A DNA stretch of 64,000 nucleotides from Plasmodiophora brassicae (taxonomy: Eukaryota). Positions 20,313 through 64,000 of the stretch are shown in pieces. Both the position numbers and the translations under genes were made by a program. Position 1 is the first letter of the stretch. The number at the start of each line of letters is the position of its first letter. A model generated the notes under the pieces. That model was not told the DNA's origin. It was given only the letters and a program-made list of their open reading frames with translations, and searched no databases. Where the stretch lies: the NCBI GenBank assembly GCA_036867785.1, contig CP145420.1:682001-746000 (forward strand). Reading direction: 5' to 3'.

Positions 20313-21575
20313 ATGCTGTCCCGCCTACCGCTGTTGGCTGTCGCGTTCGCGATTGCAGTGAATGCTCAGTCGGGCAATGTGGCACTGACGAACGGTCAAG
20401 GCACAATCACGGCGAGCGGCCTGCAATTCTCGCCGTGTTCCGATCAGACGTTCACGTTCCCGCCGTCCGTCCCGGCCGGCCTCAACGACCAGAACGCCAA
20501 CGTCGTCATCACGATCACGTACACGTACACGGCGGCATCGTCGTCGCAGATTATCGCGTCCAAGGGCGTCCTCATGACGGTCACCCTCATGAAAGGCACA
20601 ACAGCGTGCATGCAGCCGCTGTCGATCACGTTCATGCCGACGACGAACAGCAACCCGAACACGGTGTCGTTCACGGTGCCGACGGTCGCTCGATTCGACT
20701 CGATAAGCTTTGGCGCCCAGCAACCCGCCCCCGACACGTGCCTGCCGTCGCAACTGACCGCCCCAGGCATTACCGGGTTCGCTCCCGTCGACGTCCAGCT
20801 TGCCATCACGGTCGGGCAGCCCAACAACAACGGCGTCACCCAGGTGGCAACCAACCAGGGGCAGGTCGGTCACACGCTCCACTCGCATTCCCGTCTGGCG
20901 TCGCTAACAAACCATCCAGGTGGTCGCATACGAGGGCGGACAGCTCCAGGGATCGTTCACGTGCCCGCCATGGGTTCGTCATCGCACATGCGCAGCACCG
21001 CCTTCGCTGATTATGCTTGCCAGGGCAACAAGACGTACTCATTCGACAAGACCGAGATCGTGTGGTTGCCGTGCGCGTACAGCGGCCTGACGTTCTACGA
21101 CACGGCCAAGAAATACGCGATGAAGTCGGTGGTGGGCGTGACAATCACGCTGCACAGCGACGAGGACGTGACGTTGTCGCTGCGCCTACACAGCGTGGGC
21201 GTGTCGCGAGACGTGTTCCAGACGATGTTCCATGTGACGGCGGGGACCGCCTACCAAACGGTGACCATCCCGGTGCCGGGCGCCGGGACGAACGTCATCT
21301 TCGACCAGGTCCTGATCGCCGAGTCCCAGGGCATGCCGTGCGCGCAGGCCCAGAGCATCTACATCCAGAAAGTGGCCATCGCCGGCCTCCCCAGCCTGCC
21401 CAACGACTACACGCCGAGCAATAATGGCGTCGTCAACACCGGAAGCGGCGCGAACGGCCAGGCTGGCGGCGGTGGCGGGGCACACTCGGGCGCTGGCGAC
21501 ATCCTGTCCCGAAACTTGCTCACGTCCACCATGGCCGTCAACCTACTCGCTCTGGCCGCTCTTCACATCGTCTAA
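20313..21575 (+). CDS. Secreted, probably GPI-anchored beta-rich surface protein (possible in-frame intron or introns ~20865-21020)
   Basis: Signal peptide MLSRLPLLAVAFAIAVNA, two beta-sandwich-like regions, G/S-rich spacer and hydrophobic C-terminus MAVNLLALAALHIV. Confidence 0.75.
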   Translation: MLSRLPLLAVAFAIAVNAQSGNVALTNGQGTITASGLQFSPCSDQTFTFPPSVPAGLNDQNANVVITITYTYTAASSSQIIASKGVLMTVTLMKGTTACMQPLSITFMPTTNSNPNTVSFTVPTVARFDSISFGAQQPAPDTCLPSQLTAPGITGFAPVDVQLAITVGQPNNNGVTQVATNQGQVGHTLHSHSRLASLTNHPGGRIRGRTAPGIVHVPAMGSSSHMRSTAFADYACQGNKTYSFDKTEIVWLPCAYSGLTFYDTAKKYAMKSVVGVTITLHSDEDVTLSLRLHSVGVSRDVFQTMFHVTAGTAYQTVTIPVPGAGTNVIFDQVLIAESQGMPCAQAQSIYIQKVAIAGLPSLPNDYTPSNNGVVNTGSGANGQAGGGGGAHSGAGDILSRNLLTSTMAVNLLALAALHIV

Positions 21576-31951: not shown

Positions 31952-32062
31952 CCGGCGACGGCGACTTTCTGGATGTAGATGCGCCGGGCGGCCCTGGGAC
32001 TCGGCGATCAGGACCTGGTCGAAGATGACGCTCGACCCGGCGCCCGTCATCGGGATGGTCAC
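31952..32062 (-). pseudogene. Frameshifted fragment paralogous to the GPI-anchored protein gene (21261-21385)
   Basis: Reverse complement gtgaccatcccgatgacgggcgccgggtcgagcgtcatcttcgaccaggtcctgatcgccgagtcccagggc...catctacatccagaaagt aligns to 21261-21385 with a net 14-nt deletion. Confidence 0.8.
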
Positions 32063-32711
32063 CGACGCCATCCAACGGGCGTTACTTGCAGACCAATGGC
32101 GAAGCAGCGCGATATCGTCAGATTACACTGATCTGCAATGTCGGTTTCATGCCGCAGGTAGGTTCCCGGCTTGGCTCGCCGCCATACAAACATCGTCTCA
32201 TGCGATAGCGGCCATTCAATAGGCACGCTCCGGCAACGTACAAGCTGTCAAACAGGCACCGTTAATGCATCAACGCTTGCACTTCGCCATCCGTTCTCGT
32301 CATTGACGGGTATACAGAGTCAAACTTGACGCCATCGCAGGGTAAACTCCACTGTGGCAACGACTGCCACGACGGCCAGCCTAAAAGTGTCGTTCGTCAG
32401 GTGGGCAGGAGTGGAGCGCAGCCTAGATTGGGCCCAGCGCAATCGGGATCGGGGACGAAGAACGCGTGCCCGGTGTCGTCGCCAACATCGATTGCTGAAA
32501 GCCTCCTCTACCTGTTTGACGAAACGCGACATCGCGCGGCCTCAGACTCTGTTCGCGATCTTACATGTTTACGGTCGTACCATCGTTTCAGCATTGTCAG
32601 TAGGATCCAGGAAACGAACCAGAGGGAGACGACTTGGCGAACAAGGTTCAGGGTGCGTACCGCGCTCCCCGCGGGAACTGTGTCAGTCGCATCGGACGCC
32701 GTGTCGCACCA

Positions 32712-60865: not shown

Positions 60866-61055
60866 GAAGCCCAACATAACTCGCTAGGGGCTCGCGACGT
60901 ACGCCGTCACTCCGCACTTGATTAGGTAAACGCCCCGAAGGCCAAATCGAGAAGCGACCTGGAGGTACCCGCACGCACTCGGGACCCGAGTCCGTCCGTA
61001 ACCTGGAACATGTCCGACCTGTCGACGTTGCTCTCTGTACACATAAAACAAATGG

Positions 61056-61698
61056 CGAAACCAAGTACCCAACTGCACTGCCATCGCCTTCTTCTCCCGT
61101 CGATCCAACGACCTTGCCCGACGTGGACGCCGCCGAGCGTGCGCTTTCGTGCGCTTTACGCGCCTTCCAGATCCTGCAGTATGCATCCTTCATTGAAATG
61201 CGGGTCAGTTGACGTAACACAAAGCGCGCTTAGCCCTTCAGCCAGCTAGCCAGGAGCGCGCGAGCGCCCGCTGACAGTGGCTGGGTCGACGAGAAATCGA
61301 CGCGGGCAATGCCAGCGATTAGGTTCAACCACTCACTCGCCGCCAGATCGTCAGAATCACCGGAAAATTCACTCAACGACCACTAAGTCGTCGTGACAAC
61401 AGGATCGGCTAAGGTGATATGTGGCGACGGCTCAGCAGGTGTCGCGGAGGCATCGGTGGTCGGCAAGGGCGTAGGCGGCCTAGCGAGCGGGCGGCTGGCG
61501 AACACGGTGTGAAAGCTCCTCAGCTGCTCCTCAGCGCGAGCCCGCATTTCAGTGAAGAATGCATCCTGCAGTTCCTGCTGGATCTGGAAGATGCGTAAAG
61601 CGCCCGAAAGCGCAAGCTCGGCGGCGTCCACGTCGGGAAAGGTCGTTGGGTCAACGGGAGAAGAAGGCGATGGCAGTGCAGTTGGGTACTTGGCTTCG
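61056..61698. repeat. Inverted repeat: arms ~61056-61204 and ~61541-61698, spacer ~335 bp
   Basis: ccaagtacccaactgcactgccatcgccttcttctcccg...gaaatgcggg occurs on + at 61061 and on - ending near 61693; scattered substitutions and a 9-nt indel. Confidence 0.9.
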
Positions 61699-61887
61699 TC
61701 ATCCACCGAGCCCGTCAAGCCGGAGCGCGTACGAGTCATCAATGAACGATCGGGATAAATTCGAACAACAAGGCCGGGGATCACTGGAAAAATAAAAGTA
61801 CCGAATTAGTGCCGTCCCCTTGATTACCCAATCAGCACTTTATCGGCATTTAACGGCACTACCAAGTAACGCTTTGGGACCCGTGAT

Positions 61888-62027
61888 TGAGGATCCACGT
61901 CTGCCGTGAGTCAAGACTGTCATGGACTGGTATGCATGAGTCACGCGACAGTGTGGACGGTGAGAGTGTGCCACCAGGAATAAAGGAGGTTCCCCAAAAG
62001 CATTCCTACCGTGAACACTTCGTTTCA
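61888..62027 (+). mobile_element. Putative 5' LTR of a Copia element (5' edge uncertain: 61884 or 61888)
   Basis: TG...CA ends, internal AATAAA at 61979, immediately followed by a PBS and the gag ATG. Confidence 0.55.
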
Positions 62028-62047
62028 GATTAAGAGTCCCATCGCTC
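62028..62047 (+). promoter_or_regulatory. Primer-binding site complementary to the anticodon arm of tRNA-Lys(CUU)
   Basis: GATTAAGAGTCCCAT(C)GCTC is the reverse complement of GAGC-ATGGGACTCTTAATC, the eukaryotic tRNA-Lys(CUU) D-arm/anticodon segment as recalled. Confidence 0.7.
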
Positions 62048-62050
62048 GAT

Positions 62051-62808
62051 ATGTCGACCACCAGCACTAGCACGCCGGACGTCAGCGGCGCCGACTCCAA
62101 GGACCACGTGTCGATGACCACCGGAGTCAGACTGACGGGCGCGGACAACTACACGACATGGGCGTTCGCGATGACCGCCATGCTGGACGCGCACGGGCTT
62201 GCCGATTACGTGGACAAGTCCAAGTCGGCGCGTGCCACGGATGAGAGGAAGAAGGCCCGAGCCATGTTCGCCATCACGCGGAACATCGGGACGTCCCATA
62301 TGGCTCTGATCAAGGGATGCACCAGAGATCCCGCTGGAGCGTGGGACATCCTTCGCGATGAATACGCCGGGAAGTCCAACCAGGACACGGCGACTCTGCT
62401 GATAGAGCTATTCGGGAAGAGGCTGGACCCCTGCCCGTCAATCGAGGAGGCGAAGGCGCATTTCGAGCGCATGAACGACCTGAACTTGCGATTGAGGGAG
62501 ATACAGGAGGACCGAGCACTTCCCGATGTGATCCTGTCGGTGCTCATGGCGATGCCGCTTCCTAACGACATGGAGCAGATCCGCTACGCGCGCCTTTCGG
62601 GCCCGGCTGAGATGCTGACATCGAGAACTATTCGAGACGACGTGATATCGCTGCTCCGTCGCATGGCGGTGACGGATGGTGCGGCGGCCAACTCTGGCGA
62701 TGCCGCGATGAATGCGAACTCGGGCGGTGGCGGTGGACGACGACGCCGGTTTCGGGGGAATTGCTTTGAATGCGGGAAGGCGGGCCACCGCGCGGCGAAC
62801 TGCCGTCA
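62051..62808 (+). mobile_element. gag: Ty1/Copia gag, truncated after the zinc knuckle (no pol in the window)
   Basis: LTGADNYTTWAFAMTAMLDAHGL (Copia gag N-terminus), UBN2-like core (AWDILRDEY, LPNDME), CCHC knuckle CFECGKAGHRAANC. Confidence 0.9.
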
Positions 62809-63035
62809 GCGCGCTGGCCCGCCTTCCCGCATTCAAAGCAATTCCCCCGAAACCGGCGTCGTCGTCCACCGCCCGAGTTCGCATTCATCGCGGCATCGCC
62901 AAAGTTGGCCGCCGCACCATCCGTCACCGCCATGCGACGGAGCAGCGATATCACGTCGTCTCGAATAGTTCTCGATGTCAGCATCTCAGCCGGGCCTGAT
63001 AGGCGCGCGTAGCGGATCTGCTCCATGTCGTTAGG
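62561..63035. repeat. Near-perfect palindrome of the gag 3' part: arms 62561-62793 and 62809-63035, 15-nt loop
   Basis: Direct comparison shows 4 substitutions and one 6-nt indel over ~230 bp. Confidence 0.95.
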
Positions 63036-63229
63036 CGATTTTCCAACAAAGCGCTCGTACGTTCTTGCAAACCGCTTAGAATGGAATGGTACCCCAGGTA
63101 TTGACACTATGGTATTCTCGTTAAACAATAGAATAAACGTCCACGAACCGTCGGCCTCGGTTGACGGTTAATCCGTGTTGTGAGACAATATCGTCTGTCG
63201 TGTCGTCTCCTGACAGCGATCAGCATGGG

Positions 63230-63385
63230 CCCGTTCGCGTTCCTCTTCAGAGCCGCCGCGGCGTTCAGCAGGACGATTCTCCGCATATCGAACTTGTCGG
63301 CAACTTCAAGCGCGGTCACAACGTCTTTGTATTCGGCGGGTAAGTTGTAGAGCATAGTGGCCGAGGTCAAGAGTCCCAGCTTCAC
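63230..63385 (-). mobile_element. Degenerate Copia gag (UBN2-like) fragment from a different family
   Basis: ATMLYNLPAEYKDVVTALEVAD resembles the LL.SLP.EY..vvtale gag motif. Confidence 0.5.
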
Positions 63386-64000
63386 CGGTCTCACGCGATG
63401 TCGACTGACACAGGTCGCTTGTGTCTCTCGACGATTCATCGTGGTCGTTCTCCGAGCTCGACATAGAGCGAACATCTGCAGCGGCCGATTGGGAGCGCAG
63501 TGATCAGTACAGTCATTCGTGCCCAGCCATTCAGTCAGTGACGAACGATTCGCCTGCGTTTGCCAGACGCGTGCAGTGTGACGGCGCGGCGACTCGTCCG
63601 CGTGCGACGAGCAGGTCCATTGCCGTCGGCAGCAGCGTCGTCGTCAACGGCCTCGTCAGCCTGGTCGGATCGGTTGCCCCGTCGCTGGCGAATGGCGGCG
63701 ACGTACGTGCCCACCGTATCGTCGACGATGCCGTGAAACTCCGACGACGTTCCCTCGGCCTTGGCCGAGAGTCCAGGATCACCAGCTCGAACGCGTTTAC
63801 GAAATATGCATGTGCGCGCCTCGAGCTCAGTCCGATCTCGACGAGCGTGCGCCCCACAGCGCCGATCAGCCTCAGAGCGTGCTTATAAGGACGCGCCAAT
63901 CGATGCGTGCAGCGCCGCACGTCTCCAGTAGGTCGTTGTAACGGGCAGCTATGGCGGGCGCGCGTTTTCTGGTCGTGAGGTATAGCACCAAAGACGCGGG

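Follow-up and report, generated by a model that had tools for sequence, protein, structure and literature searches.

A Copia gag relic in Plasmodiophora brassicae preceded by a predicted half-tRNA-Lys(CUU) primer-binding site

Introduction

Priming of reverse transcription from a tRNA that is cut internally has been described for the yeast element Ty5 and for Drosophila copia (PMC5371799, available text), and primers consisting of half-molecules cut in the anticodon stem are, in the available text of PMC6317226, confined to Copia lineages. The tRNAs involved include several elongators. The plant Copia element Bianca has a half-tRNA-Ile site (PMC6317226), Copia elements of Candida carry an internal Arg(UCU) site (PMC4139406), and Tyr, Ile and Asp half-tRNA sites are given for Copia elements of rust fungi and for Helenus, with at least five elongator-tRNA switches counted by Kojima among the fungal Helenus families (PMC10886601), in each case according to excerpts of these sources. 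In FunCo1, a fungal Copia clade, the primer site corresponds to an internal region of tRNA-Lys; in its accessible passages the source (Donnart et al. 2017, PMC5445492) calls this site 'classical' and makes no explicit mention of half-tRNA priming. Excerpts of three further papers (PMC7773854, PMC10869971 and PMC2359750) give no cleavage position.

In the 64,000-nucleotide stretch of Plasmodiophora brassicae DNA analysed here (the window), a truncated Copia gag gene is preceded by a site predicted to pair with the anticodon arm of tRNA-Lys(CUU). A complementarity of the primer-binding site (PBS) to an internal region of tRNA-Lys is common to this element and FunCo1, and 10 of 11 bases are identical between the window site and the FunCo1 site as printed. 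The hosts differ, however, since FunCo1 is found almost only in Pezizomycotina fungi according to the accessible part of PMC5445492, whereas the host here is a rhizarian protist. The window element is not filed as FunCo1, the comparison resting on primer site and host, as the window has no reverse transcriptase (RT). With copia and Ty5 it shares the Copia superfamily, a site in the anticodon arm and a primer 3' end inside the tRNA (PMC5371799, PMC6317226, available text). These two elements use initiator tRNA-Met and their priming has been shown by experiment, whereas for the window element we infer priming, from the elongator tRNA-Lys(CUU). Hemiviruses are marked by an initiator tRNA-Met primer (copia, Ty5, Osser); the window site reads a CUU anticodon, and the element, which would work like a hemivirus, is not filed as one. 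Its likeness to Bianca and to the Candida and rust-fungus elements lies in a half-tRNA site that has changed over to an elongator, with differences in the tRNA and in the hosts.

A half-tRNA-Lys site in a Copia element is therefore not new in kind, and the novelty implied when the site was originally predicted does not hold, because FunCo1 already has a published internal tRNA-Lys site (PMC5445492, in the part available) and other non-Met halves are in print as well. The motif is absent from 17,418 characters of the supplements to PMC6317226, whose per-element PBS table may lie elsewhere. A clubroot pangenome preprint (10.64898/2026.10.14.759018) treats Copia in general terms and, in the text available, gives no primer site.

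The predicted primer-binding site and its pairing

In the window, a CA dinucleotide at 62026-62027 is followed by GATTAAGAGTCCCATCGCTC at 62028-62047 on the forward strand, and then by the gag ATG at 62051. The original prediction of a CA followed by a primer site of other than TGG type was confirmed at 62026-62047, with no differences in any of four public sequencing runs. These runs come from four studies, and their contigs over 61940-62590 (61915-62590 in one run) show no differences from the window, so the primer site is not an assembly error. The core of the predicted site (62028-62042) would pair with positions 40-26 of tRNA-Lys(CUU), followed by a bulged base at 62043 and by four bases (62044-62047) facing positions 25-22. 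This 15-base core occurs once in the window at up to two mismatches, against a mean of 0.02 matches in shuffled sequence, and no tRNA gene was found within the 64-kb window.

The tRNAs that stand in for those of the host were obtained from a motif scan with the first 14 bases of the PBS, which gave at least 114 viral loci, and from ARAGORN calls at these loci. Among the viral loci listed there are 19 tRNA genes, the motif lies inside a called tRNA at five loci, and all five tRNAs containing it, among the matches listed, are Lys(CTT). Since these viral-contig tRNAs were picked by the motif, the first 14 pairs to the five stand-ins arise by construction. Not given by this selection are the isoacceptor, the register, the 15th pair (in four of the five genes) and the four pairs past the bulge. 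The control set is a small one. With the anticodon numbered 34-36, tRNA position 40 is the partner of the first PBS base. The register of copia and Ty5 likewise ends near position 40.

Watson-Crick pairing is unbroken from position 40 to position 26 in four of the five stand-in Lys(CTT) genes (15 of 15 pairs) and to position 27 in the fifth, which bears out the claimed complementarity to the anticodon arm of tRNA-Lys(CUU). Four additional D-stem pairs past the one-base bulge were observed with two stand-ins, L009 and L019. The duplex of the PBS with L009 reaches -31.1 kcal/mol, compared with -22.9 for the best other tRNA, and in the other 14 stand-in tRNAs the longest unbroken run is at most 6 bases, compared with 14-15 for Lys(CTT). 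By hand arithmetic, the chance of a 15-base match anywhere in about 50 tRNAs is near 3 in a million. A human LysCTT primer printed in PMC6932762 (available text) also contains the complement of the PBS. Against the stand-in tRNAs, the site lies beside the putative long terminal repeat (LTR) with pairing that ends in the anticodon stem, as in half-tRNA-primed elements, and by extension from these stand-ins the tRNA-Lys(CUU) of the host would be expected to fit it.

Structure and state of the element

The frame that starts at 62051 is open from the ATG through a CCHC zinc knuckle (62051-62806, forward strand, 252 codons) and encodes a Copia Gag that is truncated before the protease. In agreement with the Copia assignment made originally, this frame matches Pfam Retrotran_gag_2 at E 6.1e-9 (36 bits, cut-off 27); the zinc knuckle near its end matches zf-CCHC at E 0.0012, which is below the zf-CCHC cut-off. 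A Copia-type Gag with a CCHC knuckle, a mark of Ty1/Copia elements, is thus present in the window. An NCBI protein named Plasmodiophora brassicae is 100% identical over 92% of the window Gag.

A Gag-protease profile of the lineage aligns with the window only at profile positions 1-252 and with an inverted piece of gag, and detects no protease anywhere in the window. No pol was found in the window. It also lacks direct repeats of at least 40 bases, hence a second LTR, and it shows no target-site duplication, where Ty1/Copia elements have two LTRs with TG...CA ends and a duplication of 5 bp. The copy is a dead, truncated relic that is unable to move and has lost the 3' end of the element. Its truncation had been missed originally, and being dead it is unsuited as a test system.

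The rest of the element is replaced by an inverted duplicate (62809-63035, reverse strand) of the 3' part of gag (62561-62793). Between the arms of the resulting hairpin, which are about 230 bp long, there are 4 substitutions and one 6-base gap, and because two of the four substitutions are synonymous the second arm may derive from a sister copy. Pieces of both arms were seen in public contigs, and the whole hairpin is spanned by none of the contigs listed. The hairpin (62561-63035) sits downstream of the putative LTR promoter.

The public protein P0004 was considered as coming from an assembly that has no hairpin, and was rejected as such: its tail corresponds to window positions 63676-63885 at 100%, and GT...AG ends are present. 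More simply, P0004 appears to be a spliced gene model of the same locus (62051-63885) in which the gag relic is joined to downstream repeat DNA, so that the relic has been annotated as a host gene, probably through a gene-prediction artefact.

Contig depth, which here is not copy number, is similar over gag and over the unique left flank in four runs (206 vs 161-250, 50 vs 46, 79 vs 68 and 75 vs 77), which suggests that gag is single-copy at a likeness of 82% or more, though contigs cannot show absence.

The putative 5' LTR (61875-62027, forward strand, about 140-153 bp) lies between the end of a multi-copy repeat at 61859 and the PBS. It would start at one of three TG sites (61875, 61884 or 61888) and end with the CA at 62026-62027. 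Contig depth over 61884-61990 is raised in all four runs; in the next bin, the excess amounts to one extra copy in two of the four, ending near 62028 (run X2) and 62016 (run X3), while run X4 has no excess and in run X9 the excess runs into gag and is uninformative on the boundary. The LTR end at 62027 is putative, with indirect support. Both relatives with a primer site carry TA instead of CA before it (259-260 in L115 and 301-302 in L116), so the lineage may have non-canonical LTR ends. The palindromic word TGA(G/C)TCA, which we take to be an AP-1/Gcn4-type site, is present in all three putative LTRs, twice in that of the window (61907-61913 and 61937-61943), and may be a conserved promoter element.

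On both sides, the Copia element is flanked by multi-copy repeat DNA that lies outside it. The left repeat (61028-61859) has a depth several-fold above flank level and loose contig ends at 61859; it includes an inverted pair (61052-61204 and 61541-61702, 87% alike), and Pfam recognises none of the three reading frames tried. From 61052 to 61702 it forms a multi-copy unit of 650 bp with inverted repeats of about 150 bp at its ends, resembling a miniature inverted-repeat or foldback element. Depth is also raised in the right repeat (63061-63800), where loose contig ends are numerous. Past 61859, other copies of the left repeat continue differently, and one contig of run X9 links 61859 to 63077, with a short side of just 21 letters; the whole relic (61860-63076) may sit within another repeat. 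Elsewhere in the window, two stretches of 74 bases that are 95% complementary form an inverted pair 10.7 kb apart (21259-21332 and 31991-32064).

Conservation of the site in relatives

A scan of metagenome contigs with Gag peptides gave 187 candidate stretches, of which two were confirmed as relatives (L115 and L116), so that DNA context is available for three elements including that of the window. In both relatives, which were found through Gag alone, the primer site precedes gag. The site is thus kept in two of two relatives, at 42-47% Gag identity and within diverged surroundings, the flanks of the three elements not being alignable. The 15-base core is complete in L115 (47% Gag identity), at 261-275. 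In L116 (42% Gag identity) the site at 303-320 has 13 of the first 14 bases, the mismatch being the base that faces tRNA position 32, and continues into the D-stem segment. The distance from site to ATG is 23 bases in the window, 24 in L115 and 53 in L116.

Within 200 bases upstream of gag, the window and L115 have no common word longer than one of 16 bases, against a maximum of 12 in 200 shuffles. The longest exact word shared with L116 has 9 bases and was equalled in 15 of 200 shuffles, so it counts only together with its position and the pairs past the mismatch. The G that faces C34 is kept in all three elements, and the spacer around position 26 differs between them (T-C, T-A or nothing). 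A methylated G is common at position 26 of eukaryotic tRNAs and could account for this variation. Conservation before gag in these relatives, judged by comparing sequences, is the strongest independent evidence for the site.

Scans based on Gag confirmed no relative among candidate stretches from viral contigs (66 and 7) or from prokaryotic genomes (33), and among 118 loci the lineage profile matched only L115 and L116. Two loci from motif and flank scans, L117 (prokaryotic genomes) and L118 (viral contigs), have no gag and were treated as chance; L117 has no tRNA, and in the shorter locus at the L118 match no tRNA was called over the motif.

Proposed priming and alternative readings

In active members of the lineage, the element RNA would anneal to host tRNA-Lys(CUU), with its anticodon arm opened, over positions 40-26 and a short D-stem segment. 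The tRNA would be cut after position 40, and reverse transcriptase would extend the new 3' end into the LTR, giving minus-strand strong-stop DNA. This route is likened to that of Drosophila copia and yeast Ty5 with initiator tRNA-Met, and both the cut and the priming are proposed by analogy with these two elements and with descriptions of half-molecule primers. Half-tRNA-Lys(CUU) priming in active members is the best reading of the site and, in our judgement, a very probable one.

The original interpretation stands in so far as it describes a Copia gag with a conserved Lys(CUU)-arm site, but not in its implied novelty or in the link that it drew between retrotransposition and tRNA-fragment production. 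That link was an over-reach, the predicted primer end being position 40, in the anticodon stem. Ordinary stress-related tRNA halves arise by cutting in the loop, and their terminal phosphate does not allow direct priming.

A different role for the site would be that the tRNA binds uncut, or that the site is structural, with priming achieved otherwise by self-priming or by a hairpin like that of fungal GalEa, for which palindromic tRNA-free sites are reported in the accessible part of PMC5445492. The window site, however, is no palindrome, and the sequence around it does not fold more stably than shuffled sequence (z +0.88, with 160 of 200 shuffles folding as well). Moreover, the longest complement of the site within the upstream LTR region is 6 bases, and the pairing stops exactly beside the putative LTR end, as the 3' end of a primer would. 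We regard such a role as very unlikely.

The half-tRNA site could also serve another tRNA with a similar anticodon arm, either tRNA-Asn(GUU) or tRNA-Lys(UUU). A stand-in tRNA-Asn(GTT) pairs with 12 of the first 13 bases and accounts for the value of -22.9 kcal/mol, and a stand-in tRNA-Lys(TTT) pairs over 11 bases with one G-U. However, a G faces position 34 in all three elements, a Watson-Crick fit to C34 only, and the contiguous pairing of 14-15 bases with Lys(CTT) is opposed to at most 6 in the other 14 tRNAs. Because of the pairing with Asn(GTT), it is largely a single base, the G at 62034, that decides for Lys and against Asn; a primer other than tRNA-Lys(CUU) nevertheless seems very unlikely.

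An LTR that ended further upstream, next to a conventional TGG-type site that binds a tRNA 3' end, would make the Lys match incidental. There are two CA..TGG sites upstream, at 61921 and 61949, and the window has no second LTR that would prove the boundary. Neither of these sites is conserved in L115 or L116, whereas the Lys-type site is, and in two of the four runs the depth of the extra copy passes 61921 and 61949 to reach about 62016-62028. The three elements thus share no TGG-type competitor, the finding that was to count against the original prediction, and an upstream boundary is highly improbable. That the match is due to chance, or is a scrap of a tRNA gene beside the gag relic, has next to no probability. 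Such motifs do occur by chance in very large collections (L117 and L118, which have no gag) and lie outside any called tRNA at 109 of the at least 114 viral loci listed, but the site stands before gag in three of three elements whose flanking DNA cannot be aligned and whose Gag proteins are 42-47% identical to that of the window, a conservation that already largely refutes this explanation.

The lineage and a possible frameshift after the protease

Half-tRNA-Lys(CUU) priming would belong to a lineage that can be followed through its Gag and protease. A search of 1.84 billion proteins with the lineage profile gave 42 matches at E up to 1e-30. In a Gag-protease tree, and thus one not based on RT (FastTree, 36 chosen rows including the window Gag, midpoint root), the window Gag groups with L115 and P0005-P0009 with 100% local support. 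These belong to a branch of 24 rows, again with 100% local support, which is apart from 12 other Copia rows, three of them named from arthropods. An earlier quick Gag-protease tree, also rooted at the midpoint, used 59 of 102 eligible rows and left out the window Gag. One fragment, P0018, is labelled sugar beet, and our guess is that it is a contaminant from a root parasite.

Among the 52 top proteins, 28 end at the C-terminus of the protease, and 26 of these 28 end in Q/S-D-F with at most one further residue. The QDF ending is not shared by P0023 and P0024, and P0016 continues past this point in the same frame. In both L115 (1601-1714) and L116 (1030-1075), an identical heptamer, GGATTTT, codes for the QDF motif and is followed by a stem-loop. 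The folding of the stem-loop has a z of -2.4 in L115, where 5 of 200 shuffles are as good, and of -2.1 in L116 (8 of 200). The -1 frame of L115 is open to the end of the contig and is similar to P0016 in the pre-integrase stretch (11 of 21 residues identical, E 3e-4); the 38-residue piece in this frame was not recognised by Pfam. L116 carries an internal deletion, and as its -1 frame stops after 22 codons this element gives the frame no support. Immediately behind the protease (Pol_BBD), the relatives have a GAG-pre-integrase match (P0016, E 6.1e-5, below cut-off), an arrangement that agrees with the order in Copia.

These sequences are apparently read most simply as a programmed -1 frameshift between protease and integrase; they are seen only in the relatives, the region having been lost from the window copy; splicing at this point is the rival to a frameshift. 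No RT of the lineage was found: none of 4212 candidates proved to be a longer protein with Gag, and the integrase-side region of P0016 confirmed none of 245, both of which are weak negatives. Among 16 tabulated plant Copia lineages, none has a split between Gag-protease and integrase as its prevailing layout, with at least four undetermined, whereas the split layout does belong to the relatives of the window element. Full-text literature searches found no split after the protease for Copia, which is a thin basis for its absence from print. It is quite possible, if a little short of probable, that these elements form an undescribed Copia lineage of soil protists that combines a half-tRNA-Lys(CUU) primer acquired independently of FunCo1 with a programmed -1 frameshift after the protease.

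Implications

If confirmed, a frameshift at this point, an unusual place for Copia, would surprise more than the primer site does. Because it would lie after the protease and not between Gag and protease, the protease would be made one-to-one with Gag, and only the integrase, RT and RNase H would be rationed. The gag hairpin, if transcribed, could give double-stranded RNA that silences the family.

The primer site adds a rhizarian example to the known list of half-tRNA Copia elements. It supports the idea of half-tRNA priming as a general ability of Copia that can be re-aimed at many tRNAs. If sites of Lys type and of Asn type both occur in this genome, an altered base opposite the first anticodon position may be nearly all that a switch requires. 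Such re-aiming bears on the nuclease that makes the primer, which would be a recogniser of an RNA duplex rather than of a specific tRNA.
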